A stretch of 61,992 bases of DNA, counting the filler, from Candidatus Zapsychrus exili (GTDB lineage Bacteria; Omnitrophota; Gorgyraeia; Zapsychrales; Zapsychraceae), in the NCBI GenBank assembly GCA_030765585.1. It is 6 parts of 6 records of this genome, joined end to end, with 100 filler letters (N's around TTAATTAATTAA, not from the genome) between each part and the next. Parts side by side here need not be neighbours in the genome. Positions count along the whole stretch, not along the records: positions 29,866 to 43,663 come from JAVCCJ010000067.1; 5 more parts are not named here. One strand, 5' to 3'. The translations under genes were made by a program, and so were the position numbers. The notes beneath the pieces are model-generated. The model did not search any database and was not told where the DNA came from. It worked only from the letters and a program-made list of their open reading frames with translations. Position 1 is the stretch's first letter. The number at the start of each line of letters is the position of its first letter. Positions 29,866 through 43,663 of the stretch are shown piece after piece.

Positions 29866-30855
29866 GGAACGACGAGTCCAACTATTCCTTTAGTTGTAGG
29901 TTCAGGTGGAGACCCAGGTAGTGCAACTATTGCAGCATTTATAAATACAAATAATGGTGGTGCAGCTTCTATAATGATACAGAATGATGTGGATAATAGT
30001 GCAGTTGAAACTAATGAAATTATTAGTCGTGCTGCTAATCGTAATAATGGTAAAATTCTTTTTGGAAGAGATGCTGACCAATCAACTGCAGATAATGCAG
30101 ATGGTTTTCTGGCTCTTTATACAGCATTGAATGGTAATAATGTAGAGGCAATGAGGATAGACAGCGACGGCAACGTCGGCATCGGGACGACGAGTCCAGC
30201 TGAATTACTACATATTAATAACTCAACAGTTAATGCAGAAGCAGCAATAATTGTAGAAGGTGGAAATGCTGGAGATGGAGCAATATACCTAACTGAACTT
30301 AACGCTGCTGGAACTCACGGTCACGGTGGAAAAATAGTTTATGACGGTGGAGATAATAAAATGTATATACAGACGGGAATAGAAGGAAGTTTAGCTACAA
30401 GAATGACATTCTTAAGAGATAGTGGCAACGTCGGCATCGGAACGACGAGTCCAGGGGCGAAGTTGGACGTGGCAGGTATAGGGCATTTTGATGACCTTGT
30501 GGAAGTAGCTGCAATTGGAGAAGCTTGGTTCCAAGCGGTTGTAGGTAGTAGCGCTGGTTTATTTGGGAACGATGGAGTACAGACATATATTTATGATGCC
30601 TCAAACCCAATTGGAATATGGGCTGGGGGTACGGAAAAAATGACAGTTCAAGATGACGGCAACGTCGGCATTGGAACCACGAGCCCAAATCAGAAGTTGC
30701 ACGTAAACGCAGTTATGCAATTATCTCCAACAGATTCTCCTGGTACTTGCGATGCTGCGGCTGAAGGCTCAATTTATGCTGATGATTCTTTAAATGAGCC
30801 ATGCTATTGCAATGGAAGTGCTTGGACACAATTTGATGGCGGTGGCGGGTGTTAA
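29866..30855 (+). CDS. GNVGIGTT-repeat fibre/adhesin-like protein, 5'-truncated by the contig start
   Basis: Frame is open from 29866 (GTTSPT...); three full GNVGIGTTSP repeats; Cys-containing C-terminal cap (TCDAAAEG...CYCNGSAW). Confidence 0.85.
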   Translation, partial: GTTSPTIPLVVGSGGDPGSATIAAFINTNNGGAASIMIQNDVDNSAVETNEIISRAANRNNGKILFGRDADQSTADNADGFLALYTALNGNNVEAMRIDSDGNVGIGTTSPAELLHINNSTVNAEAAIIVEGGNAGDGAIYLTELNAAGTHGHGGKIVYDGGDNKMYIQTGIEGSLATRMTFLRDSGNVGIGTTSPGAKLDVAGIGHFDDLVEVAAIGEAWFQAVVGSSAGLFGNDGVQTYIYDASNPIGIWAGGTEKMTVQDDGNVGIGTTSPNQKLHVNAVMQLSPTDSPGTCDAAAEGSIYADDSLNEPCYCNGSAWTQFDGGGGC

Positions 30856-31134
30856 CTTTTTATTCGGTTCCGTAATTTTTAAGTGAACCTTAGGTATTTT
30901 ATTAACATCTGAGGTTAAAAATTACCTCACGTTTTTTGTTTCTCTTAAGCTATTTTGTATAGATTTCGTGAGATTTTTTGTTTTAAATTCGTGAGGTAGT
31001 CCTCAATAAAAAATTGCTATTAAAACAATTTTATTTGACAAATAATCAAAATTATGTTATTCTTTTATCATTCGTCTATGCAAGCGCATAAGCTTGCTAA
31101 CGTATAAACTAGAAAAAACGAGACAGGCTTTATT

Positions 31135-31713
31135 ATGGCTTACCAAAAATCCTATGGAAAATATACTTACGCTGGGTATAACAAAAAAAGCAAAACATCT
31201 GACGCGGGCAATTATCGAGTAAAAAGCCCTGTAAAGTCATTCAGAGATTTGGAAGTTTATAAACAAACTACGTTTCTCTCTTCCGAAGTATATCGCTTAA
31301 GCAAGTATTTTGAGCGTGATTCCTTTGTATCAAATATTATTCAAAGTGAACCTATGGCTTCAAACGCAGCTTCAGAGCGATTGATACAAGTCGATAAATC
31401 TTTTTTAAATGAAGAGTGGCAATACCTAAAAGAAACTTCAAGAAAGATACCTGTTTGGATTACAGAAAGCTATAATGATAAATTCACAGATATCAAATTA
31501 GCTTTAGATAAGCTTGAAGGTGCTGTTAATTCAATATCACTTATGGTCTCACGATTTGATTTTATTTTGGCGTGTTTGAATGACGACTCTACTGACACCA
31601 AAGCTCTTCGTGAAAGAATTTTAAGCGTTATAACAAATTACAATCGCCAAAAGATAAAAATCCTTAATCTAAAGAAAGCATGGGCTCGAGTTTTCTCAAA
31701 AAGCGAAAAATAA
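31135..31713 (+). CDS. Divergent four-helix-bundle protein (23S IVP/bAvd-like fold)
   Basis: VKSFRDLEVYKQ N-terminal signature followed by helical sequence. Confidence 0.65.
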   Translation: MAYQKSYGKYTYAGYNKKSKTSDAGNYRVKSPVKSFRDLEVYKQTTFLSSEVYRLSKYFERDSFVSNIIQSEPMASNAASERLIQVDKSFLNEEWQYLKETSRKIPVWITESYNDKFTDIKLALDKLEGAVNSISLMVSRFDFILACLNDDSTDTKALRERILSVITNYNRQKIKILNLKKAWARVFSKSEK

Positions 31714-31723
31714 ATTTATAGCT

Positions 31724-32875
31724 ATGCAAAAAAAATATGGATTATTAAGTAATAATAAAGATGATTCTGACGATTCTGAAACAAATCTAGCGGTCGCAAC
31801 ACCAAAAGAATGCCCTTATTGCAAAAGTAAAAAGATTACTAAAAGCGGTTTGCGTAAGAATAAATACATTGATGTCCAGTTATACGAATGTAGAGATTGC
31901 CAAAAACGATTCACTCCTGTCATAACAAAATATCGAAGTTATCCCCTTCAAGTTATTATTACCGCACTTACTCTTTACAATGAATTTTATTCTTTTAATG
32001 AGATCGCTAAAGCTGTAAGCGCGGAATTTGGTATAAATATTTCTGATAAGAATATAAAAAATTGGCTTAAAGATTTTAAGGAATATCTACCATTTTTACG
32101 TATGCGAGAATTTGCTAAAGATAAATTTAATCCAAAAGAGGCTATTGAACGTGTTCATATGTTTCATGGGCAGATATATGATTATCAATATCACAGGGCA
32201 AAGCTTCAAATGATATTAGAGGAAGATTTTAGGAATAATAAATTTAAACCTTTGCGAGAATTTCTTGATCTGGTTTCTGCGGAATGCCCACATCAAGTAT
32301 TTAAGGAAAGCTCACAACGCGCCTCTGAATTTAAAAATATTTTTAATATGGATCAAGTACGAATTACTCCAAAGGCCGGTAATATTGCTTGTCGTTCGGC
32401 TGGCTTTGTGCTTCAGGCAGTATCAAATAATAAAAAGCGCCATGAAACGCTTCAGAGATTTATGCTCGCAAACGATTCTGTAACAGTAGCGGTTGAGGTA
32501 CCAGTACTTTTAGATTCCGATGATTTAAGACATTTTCGCGACAGGCTTGGCTTTGATGTTCCACCTAAGCTCAATGACAAAGAGGTTATAACAGGGCATA
32601 TTGATTTATTGCAGATTAGAAATGGCTGTGTTCATATTTTAGATTATAAGCCTTCTGCAAAAAAGGTTAAACCGATAGAGCAATTAACGCTTTACGCACT
32701 CGCATTAAGCAGGCTTACAACACTTAGGTTGTTTCATTTTAAATGCACTTGGTTTGACAAAGAGGATTATTTTGAATTCTTTCCTTTACATGTTGTTTAT
32801 AAGAAAAGGAAGAAGAAGCGACCGGAAAAAATGCGAGGATTACCAGCACCAGATGTTGGTATAAGGCTTGCGTAG
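31724..32875 (+). CDS. Zn-ribbon + HTH + PD-(D/E)xK nuclease protein
   Basis: CPYC...CRDC (IS1/InsA-like ribbon), HTH-like segment, C-terminal EVP...TGHIDLLQ...ILDYKP...QLTLYA (RecB/Cas4-like). Confidence 0.8.
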   Translation: MQKKYGLLSNNKDDSDDSETNLAVATPKECPYCKSKKITKSGLRKNKYIDVQLYECRDCQKRFTPVITKYRSYPLQVIITALTLYNEFYSFNEIAKAVSAEFGINISDKNIKNWLKDFKEYLPFLRMREFAKDKFNPKEAIERVHMFHGQIYDYQYHRAKLQMILEEDFRNNKFKPLREFLDLVSAECPHQVFKESSQRASEFKNIFNMDQVRITPKAGNIACRSAGFVLQAVSNNKKRHETLQRFMLANDSVTVAVEVPVLLDSDDLRHFRDRLGFDVPPKLNDKEVITGHIDLLQIRNGCVHILDYKPSAKKVKPIEQLTLYALALSRLTTLRLFHFKCTWFDKEDYFEFFPLHVVYKKRKKKRPEKMRGLPAPDVGIRLA

Positions 32876-32966
32876 GGGCGGGGTCACCCCGCCCGAATGA
32901 TGCATACACAAATCAAATAAACGGGTTGGGAAACCCTGATAATGGGAGCGGAAACCGCGCCCGTAC
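32872..32966. repeat. GTAG-type REP doublet (REPIN-like)
   Basis: GTAGGGGCGGGGTCACCCCGCCC ... GGGAGCGGAAACCGCGCCCGTAC; its TAG is the stop codon of the upstream gene. Confidence 0.88.
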
Positions 32967-32970
32967 GAAT

Positions 32971-32999
32971 TTGACATTATTGATTAGATATGGTATATT
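32971..32999 (+). promoter_or_regulatory. sigma70 promoter of the ATPase gene
   Basis: TTGACA-N17-TATATT with TG extension. Confidence 0.7.
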
Positions 33000-33041
33000 A
33001 TAGTCATCGTATTGACTTAATTAATATGAATAGGGTTATTT

Positions 33042-34169
33042 ATGTACATAAAGCAAAAACAATTAGAAAATATTAAAAATCGCATTATTCCTTCAAAGGT
33101 ATTTATTATTTACGGTCCAAGAAGATGTGGAAAGACAACACTTCTTAATAAATATTTAAAAAGCGTTGATCAAAAGTATTTGATGGTAAACGGTGACGAC
33201 ATAACTGTTCAGTCTATCTTAAGCAGTCAATCTATTGAAAAATTAAAGAATTTTGTTGGCAATAATAGGCTTTTGGTTATTGATGAAGCGCAAAAAATAG
33301 AAAATATCGGTTTAAATTTAAAACTTATTATTGATAATATTGATAGTATTATTGTACTGGCGACAGGATCTTCGGCATTTGATTTAGCGCAAAAGATCGG
33401 AGAGCCTTTAACCGGCAGAAAATTATCATTTCAGTTGTTTCCTATTTCACAGTTAGAGCTTTCAAATATAGAAAATGTTGCGCAGACAAAATCTTTGATT
33501 GAAAGCAGATTGATTTACGGGTCATATCCGGAAGTAATTTTGCAAAATGATAATACTTGTCGTATTGAATACTTAAAAGAGGTGGTAGGGTCTTATCTTT
33601 ATAAAGATATTTTGGAGTTAGATAGTATTCGTAGCTCGGATAAATTGATACGTTTATTACAATTGCTTGCTTTTCAAATTGGTAAGACAGTTTCTTGCGC
33701 CGAATTAGGAAGTCAGCTTACAATGAGCAAGAATACTGTATCGCGATATTTAGATCTTCTTGAGAAATCTTTTGTGATTTTTAGAATAGGTGGATTTAGT
33801 CGCAATCTTAGAAAAGAGATTGCAAAGATATCTCGGTATTATTTTTATGATGTAGGTATCAGAAATGCTGTTATCAATAATTTTAATACCTTTGATATGC
33901 GAAATGATTTGGGTGAATTGTGGGAGAACTACATTATTGTAGAAAGAATAAAAAAACAGCAGTATACAGGTGTGTTTTCCAATAATTATTTCTGGCGCAC
34001 TTATGATCAAAAAGAAATAGATTGGATTGAGGAGCGTGATGGAAAATTGTATGGATATGAGATAAAGTGGAAAAATAGTTCAAATTGTCCTAAAGAGTTT
34101 AAACAATCTTACCCAAATTCAGAATATGAAACAATAAATCAGGATAATTATTTGTCGTTTATATGTTAA
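33042..34169 (+). CDS. AAA_14 ATPase with DUF4143 domain
   Basis: GPRRCGKTT, IDEAQ, TGSS, LTGR, YFYDVGIRN, GELWEN, EIDWI...EIK. Confidence 0.92.
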   Translation: MYIKQKQLENIKNRIIPSKVFIIYGPRRCGKTTLLNKYLKSVDQKYLMVNGDDITVQSILSSQSIEKLKNFVGNNRLLVIDEAQKIENIGLNLKLIIDNIDSIIVLATGSSAFDLAQKIGEPLTGRKLSFQLFPISQLELSNIENVAQTKSLIESRLIYGSYPEVILQNDNTCRIEYLKEVVGSYLYKDILELDSIRSSDKLIRLLQLLAFQIGKTVSCAELGSQLTMSKNTVSRYLDLLEKSFVIFRIGGFSRNLRKEIAKISRYYFYDVGIRNAVINNFNTFDMRNDLGELWENYIIVERIKKQQYTGVFSNNYFWRTYDQKEIDWIEERDGKLYGYEIKWKNSSNCPKEFKQSYPNSEYETINQDNYLSFIC

Positions 34170-34182
34170 TAAAAAGATTTCC

Positions 34183-34233
34183 GTAGGCCTGCCTGACTGC
34201 CTTTGGTAGAGGCGGGCAGGGGCGATTCACGAA
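34183..34233. repeat. GTAG REP half interrupted by a CCTG...CAGG mini-hairpin
   Basis: GTAGG[CCTGCCTGACTGCCTTTGGTAGAGGCGGGCAGG]GGCGATTCACGAA. Confidence 0.75.
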
Positions 34234-34715
34234 GAAATAAAAAAGAAGATTTTACAAAGTTGGGAGAGGTTAAAGTGCCTGGTATTGACTTAGGTACTTG
34301 GGAGCGCGATGGAATATCAGTTGACGCATTTGTTTATGCAGACATAGGGTCAGACCCTTCAGAATCAGAGGGTCTGACCCTAGATGATGTTGAGCTATTG
34401 CGTCGATTAGAACTTATGCCAATTACACATTGGAACTTTATAGATGATGATGATTACAATGAGCTGTATCCAGACAGACCTGTTTATCATATTGGTCCAG
34501 TAGCGCAAGATTTTTATAAGGCATTTGGATTAGGAAGCGCAGATACGCGCGTCAAATCAACTGATTTAGCTGGCGTGGCGCTTGCAGGAATAAAGGCATT
34601 AATTGCTCAGAACAAAGAATTACGTCAAAAATTAGACGCGCAACAAGAAGAGCTTCAGTTGCAACGAGAAATCAATACTAATTTTGAGTCCCGCTTAAAA
34701 GCGTTAGAGCAGTAG
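34203..34715 (+). CDS. Orphan peptidase S74-like intramolecular chaperone domain, probably a fragment
   Basis: SRRNKKEDF start, PITHWNF, HIGPVAQDFYKAFGLG, DLAGVALAGIKAL, coiled-coil ending ESRLKALE; TTG start lies inside a repeat. Confidence 0.78.
   Translation: MVEAGRGDSRRNKKEDFTKLGEVKVPGIDLGTWERDGISVDAFVYADIGSDPSESEGLTLDDVELLRRLELMPITHWNFIDDDDYNELYPDRPVYHIGPVAQDFYKAFGLGSADTRVKSTDLAGVALAGIKALIAQNKELRQKLDAQQEELQLQREINTNFESRLKALEQ
34345..34382. repeat. GGGTCAGACCC-family palindrome pair, in frame in the S74 ORF
   Basis: TAGGGTCAGACCCT-TCAGAATCAG-AGGGTCTGACCCTA, encoding IGSDPSESEGLTL. Confidence 0.85.
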
Positions 34716-34723
34716 AAATATCC

Positions 34724-34766
34724 AAAGGTACCTGCTTCTTTTTTGAAAAAAGAAGCAGGTACCTTT
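34724..34766. repeat. Perfect 21-bp inverted repeat left of RAYT-1
   Basis: AAAGGTACCTGCTTCTTTTTT-G-AAAAAAGAAGCAGGTACCTTT. Confidence 0.93.
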
Positions 34767-34771
34767 TTTAT

Positions 34772-34865
34772 TTGACATTTTTTGCAGAGTACTTATAATA
34801 TAAGAAATTAATAATTCCCCCAGAGACATATCGATTTCCCTCATAAATATTAGGAGGGATTTTTT
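34772..34865 (+). promoter_or_regulatory. Promoter and conserved leader of RAYT-1
   Basis: TTGACA (34772)-N16-TATAAT (34794), then TCCCCCAGAGA...TCGATTTCCCTC...AATATTAGGAGGGATTTTTT-ATG. Confidence 0.75.
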
Positions 34866-35504
34866 ATGCCTAGAAGGCCTAGACTGCAAGATGCTGGTTT
34901 TATTCATCATGTATTTTCAAGAGGAAATAATAGAGAGAAAATATTTAATTTTCAAGAAGATTTTCAGCGGATGATAGAGTTTATTATTGAAGCTCGAAAA
35001 AAACACGACGTATATCTGTACAATTATGTACTAATGGATAATCATCTACATTTTCTCATAGAACCTAAGAGTTACGGAAGTTTGACTCAATTCATGGAAT
35101 ATGTTTTAAAAAATTATGCAAAATATTTTAATTATCAGAATGATCGCGTTGGACATGTTTTTCAAGGCAGATATAAAGATTTAATTATTCAAACAGAAAC
35201 TTATTTTTTTAGATGTTTGTGCTATATTGATTATAATCCTGTAAAATCTGGATTAGTAAAAAATGCAGCAGAATATACTTTTTCAGGACACAATAGTTTA
35301 GCTTGGGGTAAAGAGAGCCAGATTAAGTTAGATTGTCACGATATATATAAAAAACTTGGCTTTACGGATAAAGAGCAACAACAAGTTTATAGAGAGATAT
35401 TACCTTCTTTTAGATATGATAATCTTAGCATTGAGAAGAAAAGAAGCTCCGTGTTGGGAGATAAAGATTTTAAAGATAAGATAAACAAGAAAATAAAAAG
35501 GTAA
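34866..35504 (+). mobile_element. REP-associated tyrosine transposase (Y1/HUH), RAYT-1
   Basis: MPRRPR, HVFSRGNNREKIF, YVLMDNHLHFL (HUH), GHVFQGRY, YIDYNPVKSG. Confidence 0.93.
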
Positions 35505-35508
35505 AGAG

Positions 35509-35553
35509 TAAAGGTACCTGCTTCTTTTTTAAGAAAAGAAGCAGGTACCTTTA
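35509..35553. repeat. Second copy of the AAAGGTACCTGCTTC inverted repeat, right of RAYT-1
   Basis: TAAAGGTACCTGCTTCTTTT-TTAAG-AAAAGAAGCAGGTACCTTTA. Confidence 0.93.
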
Positions 35554-35568
35554 AAAGGAGATATTATC

Positions 35569-35931
35569 ATGGTAAAAGTATTATTAGTTGGAAGTGGAGG
35601 GTTTATTGGCGCGGTATTGCGATATTTATCAGGAGTGGCAATATATCGATTTGCAAGCGCTGCACAATTTCCATACGCAACGCTTTTTGTAAATGTACTG
35701 GGATGTTTCTTGATTGGGTTTCTTATCAAGTCGCTTGGAGAATCATCATTATATTTATTTATTATAGTTGGAGTGCTTGGAGGATTCACAACATTTTCAT
35801 CTTTTAGCCTAGAAACGCTATCACTTTTAAATAATGGTGAGATAATCAAAGCTGCATCAAACGTTATCTTCAATGTGATTTTATGTCTTTTTGCAGTATG
35901 GCTGGGATATTATTTAAAAATTAAAATGTAA
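35569..35931 (+). CDS. crcB: Fluoride efflux channel
   Basis: GGFIGAVLRY, TLFVNVLG, GVLGGFTTFSSF. Confidence 0.95.
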   Translation: MVKVLLVGSGGFIGAVLRYLSGVAIYRFASAAQFPYATLFVNVLGCFLIGFLIKSLGESSLYLFIIVGVLGGFTTFSSFSLETLSLLNNGEIIKAASNVIFNVILCLFAVWLGYYLKIKM

Positions 35932-35938
35932 TACAGTA

Positions 35939-35971
35939 AGGGGTCGTACCCCCCCCAAGGGTACGACCCCT
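35939..35971. repeat. GGGGTC-type palindrome (variant of the GGGTCAGACCC family)
   Basis: AGGGGTCGTACCC-CCCCCAA-GGGTACGACCCCT. Confidence 0.8.
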
Positions 35972-35977
35972 ATTAAT

Positions 35978-36681
35978 ATGAAAATTAAATCTTACATATT
36001 CGATATGGACGGTGTTATCACAAACACTATGCCAGACCATTACAAATGTTGGCACGATATTTTCTTGCAAGAAGGAATTCGCACAACGCACGCCGAGGTC
36101 TATCTTCGCGAAGGACAGAAGGGAATAGATTCTGTATTAGAAATCTTTGCTGAGCACAATAAGCTATTACAAAACAAAAAGCAAAAGAGATTTTAAATAG
36201 AAAAGAGAAGATGTTTGGTAAACTTTTCGTAGGGGTGATTCCATGTAATCACCCAAATAAAAAAAGGGCGAAAACATGGTTTCGCCCGTACGAAACAAAT
36301 TTTATAGTTGGAGCGAGAACATTCTTAAAAGATTTAAAAAAGCAAGGCTTTAAGCTAGCACTTGTTACAGGGTCGGCACATAGTGAAATAAAAAAGATTC
36401 TTCCAGAAAGAATATATAACCTTTTTGAAGTCATTGTAACAGGGTCTGATGTGAAAAACGGAAAACCACATCCTGAGCCATATTTAAAGGCAATAAAGGC
36501 GCTTAAGATAAAAAAGACGCAAGCAATTGTTATAGAGAACGCACCTTTCGGAATTAAATCTGCAAAAACAGCAGGGCTGAAGTGTTATGCAATAGAAACG
36601 TCATTGCCAAAGAAATATTTAAAACAAGCAGATAAAATTTTTGAGAATATAAAATCTTTGCGTAGGGGCGATTCCGCGTAA
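35978..36681 (+). pseudogene. HAD-family phosphatase (beta-PGM-like), split by a 1-nt frameshift near 36161 and carrying an in-frame REP doublet
   Basis: FDMDGV in ORF 35978-36196; LVTGS, KPHPEPY, IENAPFG in ORF 36211-36681; the -1 frame reads AITKQKAKEILNRKEKMF across the join. Confidence 0.85.
36229..36291. repeat. GTAG REP doublet inside the HAD gene
   Basis: GTAGGGGTGATTCCATGTAATCACCC...GGGCGAAAACATGGTTTCGCCCGTAC; 63 nt encoding VGVIPCNHPNKKRAKTWFRPY. Confidence 0.9.
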
Positions 36682-36721
36682 TCGCCCAGTATAAAGGGCG
36701 AAAACATGGTTTCGCCCTTAC
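36662..36721. repeat. GTAG REP doublet overlapping the HAD stop codon
   Basis: GTAGGGGCGATTCCGCGTAATCGCCC...GGGCGAAAACATGGTTTCGCCCTTAC. Confidence 0.92.
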
Positions 36722-36725
36722 GAAT

Positions 36726-36823
36726 TTGACACAATAACATCTTTGATTTATAATATAATAAATCAATAAGGTCATCCCCCAGAGAAGAGTTCGATTTTCC
36801 CTCTAATATTAGGGGGATTTTTT
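36726..36823 (+). promoter_or_regulatory. Consensus promoter and conserved leader of RAYT-2
   Basis: TTGACA (36726)-N17-TATAAT (36749), then ATCCCCCAGAGA...TCGATTTTCCCTCTAATATTAGGGGGATTTTTT-ATG. Confidence 0.8.
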
Positions 36824-37378
36824 ATGCCTGCAATTTTTCTTCCCAAGCGCAAATCAGTTCGCCTCAAGCATTATGATTATAACCAAAAAGGTACATATTT
36901 TGTCACGATATGTGTATACGAGCATAGGCATTTGTTGTGGAACAAAATAAAGGGCGAAAACATGGTTTCGCCCGTACGATTGAATAAGATCGGTATGATG
37001 ATTGATAAATGGTGGCAAGAAATTTTTGAAAAATATAAAGATGAAATCAAGTTAGATGAATACATTATTATGTCAAATCATATTCATGGAATCATCCACA
37101 TCGTAGGGGCGATTCCGTGTAATCGCCCCAATAAATCAAATATAAAAAACACATACAATGGCATCGGCAAATACATTTCATGGTTTAAAAGAATGTCGAC
37201 AAATGAATATATTAAAAATGTTAAATTGAACAATTGGCCGCCATTTAATACCCGATTTTGGCAACGTAATTATTATGAACACGTAATAAGAGATGAGGAC
37301 GATTTATTGAGAGTGCGAGAATATATTATAAATAATCCTATAAATTGGGACAAAGATGAATATAATATAGAAAAATAA
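36824..37378 (+). mobile_element. REP-associated tyrosine transposase, RAYT-2, with two internal REP units
   Basis: RKSVRLKHYDY, YFVTIC, MSNHIHGII (HUH), FWQRNYYEHVIR, YIINNP; REPs at 36952-36977 and 37103-37128. Confidence 0.93.
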
Positions 37379-37389
37379 AGGAATAAAAT

Positions 37390-38247
37390 TTGAAAATATT
37401 ATTAACAAATGATGACGGGATTGAAGCAGAAGGGCTTTGGGCAATATACAAAGAACTAAAAAAGTTCGCAGACGTTATTGTTGTTGCGCCTGATACACAA
37501 AAAAGCTCTGTAGGTCATGGAATAACATTAGGTAAGCCAATTACACACAAAATCGTAGGGGCGAGGTCATCTCGCCCGAACGATAATAGACGCGGGAACG
37601 ATTTAAACGGGTCGGGAAACCCGACCCCTGCTTGGCATGCCATAGGCGGAACTCCGTCTGACTGTGTTAAATTTGCATTAAACGTTCTTCTTAAAAAAAA
37701 ACCAGACGCAGTTGTATCAGGAATAAACCTAGGCCCTAATGATGGACATAGTGTTTTTTATTCAGGAACTGTTGCAGGCGCGCGTGAAGGATCATTTGCC
37801 AATATACCATCTGTCGCACTTTCTCTTGCAACATTTAGAAAACCAGATTACAGTTATGCTGCAAAAGTTGGAGCAAAAATAGTAAAAATTATCGTAGGGG
37901 AGGGGTCGCCCCGCCCTTTATTCCCGGGCGCAGAAAAGTTAATGGGCGCGGAAACCGCGCCACTACTCAATGTAAACGTTCCAAATCTGCCTAAATCTAA
38001 GATAAAAGGGATAAAGAATACCTGCCAAGGCACAGTTCCGATTGTCGAGGTGTTTAAAAGGGGTCAGACCCCCTTGGGGTCAGACCCGATATATTATCTC
38101 TCCGGTAAACTTCCTAAAAAAAGAAATAATGATAATGAAGATACATATCTACTACAAAAAGGGTATGTTACGATTACACCGCTTCAAAATGATTTGACAG
38201 ACAATGAATTTTTACGTACGGGCATCCCCGCCCCTACCCGTACGTAA
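37390..38247 (+). CDS. surE: 5'/3'-nucleotidase SurE with three in-frame palindromic insertions
   Basis: ILLTNDDG, GTPSDCV, VVSGINLGPN, YSGTVAGA, NVNVP, VTITPL; repeats at 37555-37631, 37894-37966 and 38060-38087. Confidence 0.95.
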   Translation: MKILLTNDDGIEAEGLWAIYKELKKFADVIVVAPDTQKSSVGHGITLGKPITHKIVGARSSRPNDNRRGNDLNGSGNPTPAWHAIGGTPSDCVKFALNVLLKKKPDAVVSGINLGPNDGHSVFYSGTVAGAREGSFANIPSVALSLATFRKPDYSYAAKVGAKIVKIIVGEGSPRPLFPGAEKLMGAETAPLLNVNVPNLPKSKIKGIKNTCQGTVPIVEVFKRGQTPLGSDPIYYLSGKLPKKRNNDNEDTYLLQKGYVTITPLQNDLTDNEFLRTGIPAPTRT

Positions 38248-38322
38248 AAATTAACGAATAATGATATATTGTAGGGCTGGGTTTCCCAGCCTAATTAACG
38301 GGCGCGGAAACCCCGCCCCTAC
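38209..38322. repeat. Hairpin over the surE stop plus a GTAG REP doublet
   Basis: TTTTTACGTACGGG...CCCGTACGTAAAAA (loop contains CCCCGCCCCTAC); GTAGGGCTGGGTTTCCCAGCC (38271)...GGGCGCGGAAACCCCGCCCCTAC (38322). Confidence 0.85.
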
Positions 38323-38401
38323 GAAATTAATCCATTTTCCGCATTACATTTCTTTAATATATGATACAATTAATTTAGTATAAATATTAATATATATATC
38401 A

Positions 38402-41400
38402 ATGTGGCGACAATCCGCAAAGGGACAGCCACCACAATCCACAATGAATAGTCTAAACAAAAAAATAACTTTTATAACAGCGCTAGCTTTCGTAGTATCC
38501 ACCATAAATACAGGATTTTTGTTTGTTGGGACACCTGCCTTTGCAAACGCAGAAGATAAAGATGATTATAGCTATACCGATAAGCTATCAGATCAATATG
38601 GCGAATTAACAGACATAAAAAATAGCATTAAAGACGATATGAACTCAACAGAGGACTTTATTGAATTCTTAAGAAGTTCTATCAAGAAAAAAGATGTATT
38701 AATAGGCGAGCTTACAAAAGAAAAAGAATCTCTTTATAAAAAGATATTAAATATTGATAATCAAAAAAAAGCTCTTGAAGAACAATGTGCTTGTATAGAT
38801 GATAGCGATATAAAGGCCTATGAGAAAGAAATCATAATAGAAGATTTAACCCTCCAGAAAGAATCCTTAATTAATCAAAATACATTCATAAGACAAGAAA
38901 GCATTGCGTTTACAGAAGAGCTAAAGAAATTGCGCGATTTAACTCAAGGCCGTGAACTAGATTTTCAAGTTAGGCTAGAAACAATAAAGGCTCCTTTAAA
39001 TGACAAAATAGCTTTTCTTAATAATAAAATAAAAGAATTAAAGGGCTCTGTATCTAAAGACGAGGGTTTATTTAAGAAAGTGACTCAAGAACAACAAGTA
39101 GCAAAGAGAAACTTATTATTGTTAGAAAAGCAAAATAAAGAGCTTGAATTAAGGCTTGATGTTGCAAAAAAGGTTATAAGAGAGTCTACCAGCAATTTGG
39201 CTGCGCAAGAAGCAGAGCTAAAAAAAGATAAGAGAAAAGAAATAGTTCTGATAGAGAGAAAGTTACAATTTTCTGAAGAAGAAAGAAGAAGAAATCTTAA
39301 AAGTTCGCTTAAAACCCAATTGAAATATGACGCATTAAAACAAAACTTAGAAAATGAAACAAAATTAAAAGAAGAATTTCAAGCAGAGCTAAAAGAAAAC
39401 CAGCAAAAACTCTCAAAGCTAGAGATACTGACTAAAGAAAATGAAGTAAAAGCAAAAAAAGAATTGAGCCTAGAGAAACAAGAGCGACAAAAAGAAACAA
39501 GTTATTTAGAAGGCGAATTATCTAAAGCAGCTGATCAAATAACGACTAATCAAGTTACGATAGATTCTATGAAGGAAGAAGAGCAGGCTCTTACCGCTCG
39601 CATAGGGGAGATAAAGTCAAATTCAAACATTGAACTTAATGCCTACTCAAATGAAGTAAAAGAATTAAGTAGTAAGTTGGTAATACAGGAAAAGGATTTT
39701 AAAGAAAATATTGAAAACCCTCTAAAGGATAAGATTAACTCTTTAGGGAGTGAGATTGATTCTCTTGCAAAAGTAAACTCAAAGAATGAATTCTTAATTA
39801 ATAAATATATCGTCGAACGAAATGAATTAGCAGAAGATTTAAAGACAACAGAGCAAGAGAAAGAAACATTAAATAAATCTCTTGAACTAACTGAAGACTC
39901 TTTAAAAGAAACAGAAAAAAGACTAAATGCAGAAATAGATAGGTTGATTGCGCAAAATAAGAAAGAAATAGATTCTTTAGAAAAAAATATAAAACAATCT
40001 AGAAAAGAAAAAGAACAAACTTTAAATAATTATTTAAACTTAAAGCAGAAGCTTGAAACAACAAATAAAACTTTGCTGCAAGAAAAAAAGACTAAAAAGA
40101 ATTTAGAGGGCGAGGTGCTAGAACTTCAAAGAAAAGTAAGTTCTATAAAATTAAAGACAAAAAAAGAACTAGAAGGCGTGCAAGCTGAATCTAAAAAGAA
40201 TATCGACAGACTAAGAAAAACTATAGAGGAAAAACAGGCGCAGGCGCAAGTGCAATTGGATCAAGAAAAAAGAGTTTGGCAGAAAAAAATAGCAGAACTT
40301 AAAAATGATTTAACTGTTAAGACACAAGAAGCACAAGTGCAAAAGGGCAGAATATTAGAGCTTAAGAGTACAGCTGATGTTCAGATAAATGAAATGGTCG
40401 AATTAAAAACTTTAAACAACACCTTGGTATCTGAGTCTAAAGAAATAAACTTTAAGCTTAGTGAAAAAGAATCACGAATAAACAAGCGAATACTTAAGCT
40501 TAATGGTTCTCTAGAGGGCAAAATAAAATTCTTAGAGAAAGAATTAAAAGCTTTAGGCAGACAAGTTTCTATAAGAGTTGAAGATGAGAGAAGAAAGTTA
40601 GACGAAATATCTCTAATTAAGGATAAAGAAATATACAAAATAAGGACAGATCAAGGCAAAACATCTAATGAACTTGAGAGTACAAAAAAGAATTTAAAGA
40701 CTCTTAAGGAAAATATTACACGCTTGACCGAGTCTAGCAAAAACTTAATAGAGGCTAAAAAGAAAATATTAAAATTAGAAAGTCAGGTAGCTCTTCTTAA
40801 AGATTTAGAAAAAGATCTTGTGGCGAGAAAGCTAACAGAAAAAAGGTTAGGACAAGAAATAGCTTCTTTAAAAGAAAATAATATAACGCTGGAGAATTCA
40901 AATAAAGATTTAAAAGAAAGAAATAAAAAAATTGTTTCACTTCAAAGCGAGCTCAAACTATCTAAAAACGCGCTTAAGAAAATTTCAAATAGTTTTGATG
41001 AGGTATTAGACCAAGAGAAGAAAGTTGTACGACTAGAAAGCGTAGAATTAAGAAAGAGAATTGAAAGTAATAAAAAAATAATGGGGCAAAAAAAAGACGA
41101 GATTAAGAAATATAAGCTAACTATAAAGTCAGCAGAAGCAAAAACAATACAAGCAAACAATAATTATTTTGCGCTTCAAGAAGATTTTGAAGAATTAAAA
41201 AAGAGCTTAGAACAGGAAAAAGGAAATTCAATAAAACAACAAGAAAAAGTAAAAAAGTCTTTAGGAGAAAAAATAGCTCGCCTGCAGCTTCAAATGATAC
41301 AAAACAAAAAAGACACGGATCAAGAGAAAGATAATTTAGTTAAGTCATATGAAAATAGGATAAAAAAATTAAATGCTAATTTTTCAAACATAGAAAAACA

Positions 41401-43663
41401 AATAAAAGAAAAAGAAAAAGTTATAAATAAACTTGAAAAGAACGCAAACTCAGAAAAAATAAAGCTAGATGCGCAAATAGAATCATTAGAGAAAAACAAA
41501 GCTAAGCTCTATGAGGAGTCGCGATACTTAAAAGATAAGCTTAAGAAAACCGAATCTGTTTTATCTAAAAAGTATGCTGATGCCGAAGTTCCTTTAAAGC
41601 TTAAGATAAGAGATCTTAAAGAGCAACTAGCAAATGCAAAAGAACAGATAGAGTTAGATCCTACAGAAGATGTTATTGAGGCTATAATTGCAGACAAAAT
41701 GATATCTGCCAGACTTCCTCTAGAGTCTAAAATATTATCTTTAGAAAAAAACATTGATACCTATAAGAAAAATTTAAAAGATAAAGAAGATAAATTATTA
41801 AGGACTATTTTAGAAAAAGAAAAGATAGATAAAGAATTGGCTGAGTCTCAAAAGCAATATAATCTGATTCAAAAAGAACTTGAAGGAGTTGTGTTGGGAG
41901 ATAATATTTCATCTAAAAGAATAAAACAGATGCGTAAACCTCTTTTAAAAAAGATAGAACGTCTAAAACAAAAGACTAAGGAAAAAGAACAAGCCCTTGA
42001 AATTCGAGAAGAAAAAATAAAACGTCCTCTAGAGAATAGAATTACTTCTCTAGAAGAAAAGCTAGCCTTTAAAGATGAGCTCATACAAAGAAAAACAAAA
42101 GATGTACAAGAGATAACTAAAAAGAGTGCATCATCCTTTAAAAAAATAGCAACACTTGAAGATAAAAATGAAAATTTAGAGAGAAAAATGAAAGTGCTCG
42201 AGGCGAGATTAAAGGATTCTATTGAGTCAACCAAGAATAAAATAATGTCTGCTAAACTTCCGCTAGAAGATAAGATAAAATTATTAAAAGATACATTTGA
42301 GAATAAAAAGAGTGCTATAGAGGAAAAACTTAGCGTTGAGATAGTGGGCTTAAAAGAAAAACTAGATTTGCTAGGCAAGAGATTAAAAGAGTCAGAAAAT
42401 GCAATAAGAGATAAAGAGATGGAAGTGGCAACAAAGGCAAAGAAAGAGAATGAGCTTAAAATAGATATTAAAAATTCTGCTATAGACAAAAGTATGCTTA
42501 AAAATGAAATAGATGCACTTAAATCCGTTTTAAAGAAGCAAGAAGAGTCTTTTAAAGAAAAACAAGATGCCCTAAAGCTATCTTTTGAAGATGATATGGC
42601 TAATCTTAAGGCCAGAAGCACTGATTTGGTTGAGTCGCTTAAACAAAATTTTGAAAATGAGAAATTAATACTCTTAAGAAATTTAGAAGATTTTAAGCTT
42701 CAATTAAAATTAAAAGAACCCAACTTTTTAGAGGACAAAGGAACTCTTAAATCTTTGCAAAGAGATAAAAAAGAGCTGATAAAGCAGTTATCAGAAGAAA
42801 TCTTTAAAAAAGAAAATTTACTTAAGAACATAGAAGAAATTAAAATCGAATTCTCAGAAGAAGAGAGTATATATGATGATAAGATTAACGGCCTTAAAGA
42901 AAAGTTAATTGCTGCTGATAGAAATATTTCAGAAAAACAAAAAATAATAGAATCAATTAAGTCTGAAAAGAACAATATCTTAGCAGGATTTGAATTGATA
43001 ACTAAAGAGCGTGATAATCTTAATACAAAAATAAAGAACAATGAAGAGCTACTTAAACAAAAAGAGCTAGATGCCGAGGAGAACTTAAAGGAAGCAACGA
43101 TGTCTTTTGAAAAACAAACAGAGACATTGAAAGCCGAATTTAAAAAGCTAGAAGAGTCTTTGGCTCATCAATTGCAAGAGAATCAAAAAGAATCTCTAAA
43201 AAACACTAGCGCTTTAAACAAAGATATTGAATCTTTAAATAAAACGATAAAATCTCGTGATAAAAAAATAGTGTCTTTAGAGCAAGATAAAGGAAATTTA
43301 TTGAAGCAAATAGAAGACAAAAGGTCGCAAGTAAGCTTGCTTAATACAGACTTAGTCAATATTAAAGATCGGCTAGCTGATATAGAAAGAAGTATTCCGG
43401 CTAAAATAAAAGAAGCGAAACGACCTTTAGAAGAAAAGCTGGCAGAACTTGTAGAGAGGCAGAAAAGCGATGAATCCAAAATTAAAGAAAAAGATAGTAC
43501 AATCAAATCTGCCAAACGCCATAAAGAAGCTATGGAAAAACAATTGCAGACTATAAAAGAAGAAAAGTCAGATATAATTGTTAAAATGGATAAGTTGAAA
43601 TTAAAATTATCAGACAAAGAAAAGGAAATTAAGCTTAGAGCTTCAAACACAAAAAACAAATTA
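38402..43663 (+). CDS. Giant exported coiled-coil protein (>1700 aa, 3'-truncated by the contig end)
   Basis: Signal-peptide-like N-terminus (likely start ATG 38444, MNSLNKKITF...AFA); K/E/L-rich heptads throughout. Confidence 0.88.

Follow-up and report, generated by a model that had tools for sequence, protein, structure and literature searches.

In this work, we focused on short palindromic elements that are translated inside protein-coding genes of Candidatus Zapsychrus exili (Omnitrophota; assembly GCA_030765585.1), above all inside surE, next to two genes for REP-associated tyrosine transposases (RAYTs; REP, repetitive extragenic palindrome). The window, i.e. the whole stretch of 61,992 nt considered here, filler included, is a string of separate contigs, and the contig analysed, JAVCCJ010000067.1 (13,798 nt), occupies its positions 29866-43663; the host genome amounts to 2.04 Mb (34 % G+C, 96 % complete). 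On the + strand, an AAA ATPase gene, an S74 chaperone-domain open reading frame (ORF), RAYT-1, crcB, a HAD phosphatase gene, RAYT-2 and surE follow one another in this order. Three kinds of elements were distinguished, i.e. GTAG-tagged REPs (several sequence families), family B doublets and family C palindromes, the labels A1-A5 (GTAG REPs), B and C denoting families defined in the present analysis. Below, G-numbers stand for relative genomes (G000 being the host genome), C-numbers for contigs of the host genome and L-numbers for fetched loci or contigs. The elements that the initial annotation had read in open frames within surE, the HAD gene, the S74 ORF and RAYT-2 were recovered at the same positions and in the same frames, and tagged hairpins numbered 92 genome-wide against 3, 1 and 2 in three shuffles.

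The surE gene (37390..38247, + strand, 285 aa) is intact and is the sole surE match of the genome. It scored 185 bits against the SurE profile TIGR00087 (cut-off 135), retained the motifs TNDDG, S39, SGINxGxN and SGT..E, as had been claimed, and yielded an AlphaFold model that keeps the fold, with a template-modelling (TM) score of 0.7-0.8 to solved SurEs; by family score, motifs and predicted fold, the product is thus classified as a SurE 5'/3'-nucleotidase. Three elements lie within it on the + strand, none of which was present in any measurable homologue (29 relatives and 119 database homologues, those bearing names being Omnitrophota). Site 1 (37555..37631, 77 nt) is a family A1 composite made of a left unit, an eroded partial right unit and a right unit, with a net gain of 18 aa: the corresponding spacing is 39 aa in the window and 21 aa in 111/111 measurable homologues. 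Site 2 (37894..37966, 73 nt), also a family A1 composite, adds a net 14 aa (59 aa versus 44-47 aa in 116/116), and site 3 (38060..38087, 28 nt), a family B doublet of the GGGGTCAG type, adds one (36 aa versus 35 aa in 117/117). The spacing was unmeasurable in 8, 3 and 2 of the 119 homologues at sites 1, 2 and 3, respectively.

Subtracting net gain from element length leaves ~23, ~31 and ~25 host bases missing at the three sites, and since the net gains fall below the element lengths, the elements partly replace host codons. The replaced residues are best seen at site 3, whose palindrome lies between strands 219-226 and 233-240, at the tip of the C-terminal beta-hairpin, and reads TPLG where solved SurEs have SPFG or DPYG; the P-x-G turn is kept, so that the palindrome substitutes for native residues. 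This tip was modelled with confidence (blocks of predicted local distance difference test score, pLDDT, of ~85 and ~81), whereas the two larger inserts form low-confidence loops (54 and 59 at site 1; 53 and 64 at site 2). The expectation that the inserts would lie in surface loops is supported for the larger ones. Reading the site 1 spacer NRRGN as a piece of host loop left over between two separate single insertions would fit the protein count; it was set aside because its DNA is 15/18 identical to the right-hand unit of a copy in G033, a likeness that favours a REP remnant. At the 3' end of the gene, a GTAC-footed hairpin (38216-38243) makes up the last surE codons (RTGIPAPTRT), and the C-termini of relatives are unrelated to it.

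The HAD-IA phosphatase gene (35978..36681, + strand) contains a family A2 REP dimer (36229..36291, + strand, 63 nt) after the last cap helix, at a position that we take to be the cap-core linker of HAD-IA enzymes. Here the gain is clean, i.e. 21 aa relative to 21/21 orthologues extracted from 24 loci; the notion of added peptide loops thus holds for this gene, while several other elements replace host codons. The empty sites sought by orthologue alignment were found for both proteins. In the model, of which only the C-terminal frame was folded, the insert region (residues 18-47) follows a long helix and has a pLDDT below 50. A second family A2 dimer (36662..36721, + strand) overlaps the HAD stop codon, its unit at 36662 being translated as RRGDSA*, which closes the gene, and stands directly upstream of the RAYT-2 promoter. 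All six family A2 units lie inside RAYT-2 or within ~600 nt of it, and among the host-gene inserts only this one shares the family carried by RAYT-2, so that the HAD insert may plausibly be a product of RAYT-2. In the assembly, the gene is interrupted by a one-base frameshift at 36160, upstream of the insert. An extra A at this position opens the frame in one contig in each of two metagenome runs from two studies (depth <5; one of them, X1, is a possible source sample), and the frameshift is probably an assembly error; annotators should be warned that the HAD gene of the window appears broken solely through it.

Another in-frame element, a family B doublet (34345..34382, + strand, 38 nt, net +7 aa), falls in a naturally variable loop of the S74 ORF (34203..34715, + strand, 170 aa). 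This ORF had been listed among the genes with translated REP units. The doublet does lie in frame, but the ORF corresponds to the C-terminal piece of homologues of 403-3376 aa and its 5' end lies inside a nested REP remnant (34183..34229, + strand), in which a CCTGCC..GGCAGG hairpin, with a single exact copy in the genome, is nested in an A2-like REP, within its left arm, and marks the broken 5' end. We thus read it as a 5'-truncated relic of a large protein gene, which gives no evidence of a decorated enzyme. No S74 orthologues were found in 60 relatives with this query. The residues KVPGIDLGTW of the ORF were considered as an eroded family C palindrome and rejected, as homologues share them.

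The two transposases differ in their surroundings. RAYT-1 (34866..35504, + strand, 212 aa; motifs NHLH and YIDYNP) is flanked by family C palindromes of the AAAGGTACCTG type upstream (34724..34766) and downstream (35510..35552), both intergenic; these are inverted repeats unrelated to GTAG REPs, and no intragenic copy of them was seen. In its C-terminal region, no helix-turn-helix (HTH) family was matched in Pfam at E 0.001. Its flanks and motifs would make it TIRYT-like or subclass 2.1-like. RAYT-2 (36824..37378, + strand, 184 aa), with HUH (NHIH) and Y..NP (YIINNP) motifs, resembles the TnpA-REP proteins of subclass 2.4, an assignment made by traits rather than by tree; its Y1_Tnp score (19.8) is below the cut-off of 23. 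It carries two family A2 units, one in its N-terminal loop (36952..36977, - strand) and one in the loop after the HUH motif, i.e. between the HuH motif and the Y motif (37103..37128, + strand). The latter tag is present in 24/30 clade members, the genome's own two counted, and five empty loops measure 17-19 aa; the N-terminal-loop unit recurs in the RAYT of contig C65 and in L141 and L161. The units noticed inside RAYT-2 are hence real and a trait of its clade.

RAYT-1 and RAYT-2 are barely related, yet they share a similar 50-nt leader (34772-34868 and 36726-36826) of the pattern CCCCCAGAGA..CGATTT..CCCTC..ATATTAGG.GGGATTTTTTATGCC, which sits behind 12/12 sigma-70 promoters and whose hairpin covers the ribosome-binding site. 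In the genome and the fetched loci, it was found at those two places only; one exact match came from an Acidobacteriaceae record (contig collection). Another RAYT-like gene, on contig C49 (L109; G000:C49:21330-21390), has short tandem GCGTAAGACA repeats in front of it and TTCTGGCTTA repeats behind it.

Genome-wide, 53 GC-rich hairpins of 20-40 nt with a GTAG-type tetranucleotide on their 5' side were matched, 41 of them with GTAG proper, and 15 inverted dimers with a variable spacer (52-95 nt) were found across eight contigs. Family A1 comprises 17 units on six contigs, and neither RAYT-1 nor RAYT-2 carries A1 units or has A1 flanks; by position, A2 REPs pair with RAYT-2 and A3 REPs with the RAYT of C65, which they flank. 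For A4, the family found in a DUF368 gene, no cognate transposase was found in this assembly, and A4-type units occur in the RAYTs L138 and L156 of relatives. Family B contains the motif GGGGWSAS. Three-part composites, each with a truncated middle unit, occur in surE (sites 1 and 2) and at 32872..32966 (family A1). The TAG of the latter is the stop codon of the gene upstream, a 383-aa ORF (31724-32875) in which an IS1-like zinc-binding N-terminus is fused to a PD-(D/E)XK nuclease domain. Intergenic copies on the same contig include a family A1 dimer downstream of surE (38271..38322) and, in the spacer that separates crcB from the HAD gene, a family B doublet (35940..35970). The elements ending at 32966, 34766 and 36721 stop a few bases short of a TTGACA hexamer, abutting the promoter of the next gene; among the 53 GTAG-type units of the genome, just the two dimers ending at 32966 and 36721 do so. 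Elsewhere, a region of 2.2 kb without any ORF >110 aa (L069:2243-4488; G000:C24), upstream of a giant ORF of 9,925 aa, contains long palindromes, four of which are single family B units. No Rfam family reached its gathering score on the analysed contig.

To assess where elements survive, we compiled 50 loci, after discarding 5 scan hits, adding 4 units manually and removing, likewise by hand, 2 of 15 internal calls flagged by script. Thirty-seven are intergenic or at gene ends, in agreement with the view that REPs are normally extragenic, and 13 are internal: seven in intact host genes with orthologue support, one in the relic, one tentatively in DnaX and four in RAYT genes. Random placement would put ~85 % of the loci in coding sequence (binomial P ~1e-20). 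This depletion is the pattern of purging, and the in-gene copies are tolerated survivors. Among 86 short frames taken from the 12 widest gaps, Pfam detected no REP-broken gene. The DnaX copy (contig C70), a lone family B unit in an unalignable linker, was kept as tentative, and apparent internal copies at C34, C22:9108, C49, C51, C79:5860 and L140 were dropped as shadow ORFs or N-terminal extensions.

The reading of four left-hand GTAG units as Val-Gly was confirmed at 36229, 37103, 37555 and 37894; the remaining two frames are also used within the window. In 12 non-coding dimers, the Val-Gly frame was open in 18/24 cases, the TAG frame in 2/24 and the third frame in 9/24. As the TAG of the tag closes one frame and a second is usually closed, it is largely the element itself that imposes the Val-Gly reading.

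The two RAYTs lie in a genuine hot spot. Around four RAYT-like genes, 25 units lie in 31 kb, versus 53 in the remaining 2.01 Mb, i.e. 8.1 per 10 kb within 5 kb of such genes and 0.26 elsewhere; 20 of these 25 are located on the surE contig, where 7/11 loci are internal versus 6/39 elsewhere (Fisher P 0.003). The idea that in-frame copies are local to RAYTs stands to this extent only, since three further copies lie on contigs without a RAYT. Two of them are near-identical REP dimers, 250 nt apart, in a DUF368 gene (L060:1939-2988; G000:C22) that is undecaprenyl-phosphate translocase-like and stands near HAD and surE genes in several relatives. Relative to 14 orthologues, they add a net 21 and 12 aa, the first being clean (62 nt, net 63 nt) and the second replacing about nine residues. 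The third is a family B doublet in a carbamoyltransferase gene (+9 aa versus 11 orthologues). Among relatives, two genes of G007 contain family A1 in frame, namely leuS (55 nt, net +9 aa) and a TPR gene, and A1 lies in frame in linkers of giant genes in G033 (5 loci) and in G019 (45 matches listed, of which 30 loci were examined). The paralogous giant genes L173, L181, L187, L192 and L196 of G033 and L171 of G019 have an A1 dimer in the same linker, which is lacking in the three host-genome paralogues checked. Conversely, 28 RAYT-2-like loci of relatives showed no convincing intragenic copy in neighbours within 1.5 kb, and in G004 and G007 the regions around surE and the HAD gene contain no internal copies; in G004, no REP was found in 17.5 kb, its surE being ~3.5 kb from a weak RAYT match.

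We consider it probable that these elements are non-autonomous palindromes of the REP or terminal inverted repeat (TIR) type, spread by RAYT/TnpA-REP HUH tyrosine transposases, and that gene-breaking copies have been purged. Through single-strand cleavage and strand transfer by RAYTs, palindromes would land in transcribed DNA; copies disrupting needed genes would be lost, and survivors would lie between genes or, in frame, at surface sites that tolerate them. Resident REPs may attract more events nearby, which would account both for the three-part composites and for the hot spot. Some host DNA may be removed when cleavage occurs at a distance from the hairpin and strand transfer follows, which would leave the net gain below the element length. 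The inserted peptides are most likely near-neutral passengers. Several results weigh against this explanation. No cognate transposase of A1, the surE family, was found in this assembly, A1-type units being carried by RAYT L162 of relatives; none was found for family B either, which lay within 600 nt of 0/30 top RAYT loci of relatives. The NF047646 scores of RAYT-1 (72) and RAYT-2 (49.8) are both below the cut-off of 80, and the RAYT-like gene of C49 has 0 units within 5 kb. The Val-Gly frame was open more often (18) than in spacer shuffles (12.7 +/- 2.2; 1 % of shuffles, the copies being related), an excess that plain survival does not predict and that weakly suggests a descent of the spreading copies from translated ones. 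No relative exceeded 55 % for SurE in a BLASTP protein search. Finally, SurE retains 81/93 conserved columns (76/84 away from the elements), fewer than 28/29 relatives, which could mean relaxed selection. On that account, surE and the HAD gene would be dispensable and slowly decaying, the hot spot reflecting weak purging and not more insertion. Relatives as low or lower in conservation are indeed few for SurE (1/29), HAD (1/21) and DUF368 (2/14), no insert-free control genes with enough orthologues being found for this test; moreover, surE was not found in 13/61 genomes searched, some of them incomplete, and the adjoining S74 gene is already a relic. We nevertheless regard relaxed selection as unlikely: all three surE events kept the frame, with catalytic motifs intact, the insert-bearing carbamoyltransferase lies within the range of its relatives (4/11 as low), and without a congener among the relatives searched a long branch alone may depress the score.

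The initial annotation had inferred a possible local diversification, in which the two RAYTs repeatedly write loops into neighbouring enzymes; in a partly adaptive form of this reading, the host would benefit. Such a process might explain why 3/9 host-internal events fall in one 858-bp gene (~2e-5 under uniform placement), why the HAD insert comes from RAYT-2's own family and why site 3 swaps a structured hairpin tip yet keeps the P-x-G turn of solved SurEs. It is, however, very unlikely and, in its adaptive part, unsupported: internal copies are strongly depleted overall, as purifying selection predicts, no result points to a gain of function, internal copies were found neither next to the 28 related RAYTs nor, in G004 and G007, around surE and the HAD gene, and covered sites showed no variation in four runs (contigs drop rare variants). 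Nor is an origin of the surE elements from these RAYTs supported, as their GTAG family is genome-wide and carried by neither, and family C of RAYT-1 is never intragenic. Misassembly of hairpin repeats into genes is hardly credible. Coverage is ~4-5x, an error is probable nearby at 36160, and no contig bridging surE site 1 was found among the matches listed from the four runs. Against it, an identical X1 contig bridges surE site 2, X1 contigs bridge site 3, the S74 doublet and the post-HUH site of RAYT-2 without differences, and a metagenome scan returned a single identical contig, L059 (1041 nt without difference, RAYT-2 included); the copies are individually distinct and stay in frame, and events of this kind also occur in relatives. 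The last alternative departs from purged RAYT-borne palindromes at the replacement step only: insertions would be clean, and shorter net gains would come from later small deletions or ancestral differences in loop length. It has a substantial chance of being right, short of likely. The HAD insert (63 nt, net 63) and DUF368 site 1 are clean, the composites are eroded, and orthologues are just ~47-70 % identical. A search for close relatives with base-level empty sites gave none: no empty-site joint across any element was found among the matches listed from the four runs, and 5/6 of the clusters found were singletons. On the other side, full-length elements stand at surE sites 2 and 3 and at DUF368 site 2, the missing bases being host codons, the affected spacings are near invariant in >110 homologues, and two near-identical DUF368 copies yield different gains (+21 versus +12 aa). 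We put forward as a tentative, rather doubtful proposal that REP/TIR integration in this lineage is often a one-step replacement, ~5-30 host bases being swapped for the hairpin, whereby structured native residues could give way to a palindrome; surE site 3, where a 28-nt palindrome rebuilds the P-x-G turn for a net +1 aa, would be its clearest case.

Much of this has precedents, both for GTAG REPs within genes and for REPs within RAYT genes. In-frame GTAG REP singles and dimers in known genes, most numerous in Opitutus terrae, were described by Di Nocera, De Gregorio and Rocco (2013; PMC3733652), with 20-30 aa per dimer, at times two insertions per ORF, and the TAG of the tag serving as stop; Additional file 3 of that work lists an O. 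terrae HAD hydrolase of the beta-phosphoglucomutase family with a dimer. The elements reported here are alike in their GTAG hairpins in frame, double hits, TAG stop and HAD hydrolase host, and differ in their sequence families, in their lineage and in that a single small enzyme hosts three elements, which are of two kinds. In PMC3733652, the sections on intragenic REPs mention neither net length relative to orthologues nor replacement of host codons, and its supplement no SurE. An in-frame REP lying between the motifs HuH and Y has been described as unique to TnpA-REP subclass 2.4 (10.1101/279083), which RAYT-2 and 24/30 members of its clade match, RAYT-2 adding a second, N-terminal-loop unit. 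Compared with TIRtrons and TIRYT (PMC3733652; subclass 2.1 in 10.1101/279083), family B shares the GGGGWSAS motif and RAYT-1 is flanked by non-GTAG self-complementary repeats; its immediate flanks are nevertheless family C and not GGGGWSAS, and Pfam gave no C-terminal HTH match.

The E. coli TnpA-REP is reported to cleave at a CT distant from the hairpin and to carry out strand transfer, and its insertion has been proposed to occur near resident bacterial interspersed mosaic elements (BIMEs; PMC3333891). The REP/BIME system of E. coli (PMC3333891, PMC8266576) resembles ours in the GTAG guide and hairpin, in inverted dimers with variable spacers, in composites and in clustering; here, by contrast, there are ~50 loci in several families and not hundreds of copies, a quarter of them inside genes. 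The palindromic elements of Rickettsia (RPEs), which PMC3733652 summarises, are likewise translated inside housekeeping genes; RPE-1 is longer, whereas the units here measure 28-77 nt and share their genome with transposases of the expected kind. A literature search on SurE structure gave nothing relevant. No literature on replacement-type intragenic REPs, or on REPs in Omnitrophota, was found by title, subscription papers and bioRxiv supplements being outside the search. The phenomenon, i.e. tolerated REPs in genes, is thus known and modest; here it is real and unusually dense.

The new point raised is whether integration itself replaces host codons. The in vivo integration of REPs by RAYTs is stated to be still unknown (PMC3333891, PMC8266576), and the near-fixed loop lengths of the surE, HAD, DUF368 and carbamoyltransferase products serve as rulers of the host DNA lost per event. 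A small soluble SurE with three elements also offers an easy bench test of peptide neutrality. If replacement proved true, its junctions would expose the in vivo integration step of RAYTs, and elements pre-adapted to one open frame, together with REP-rich hot spots, would let selfish DNA rewrite core enzymes time and again.

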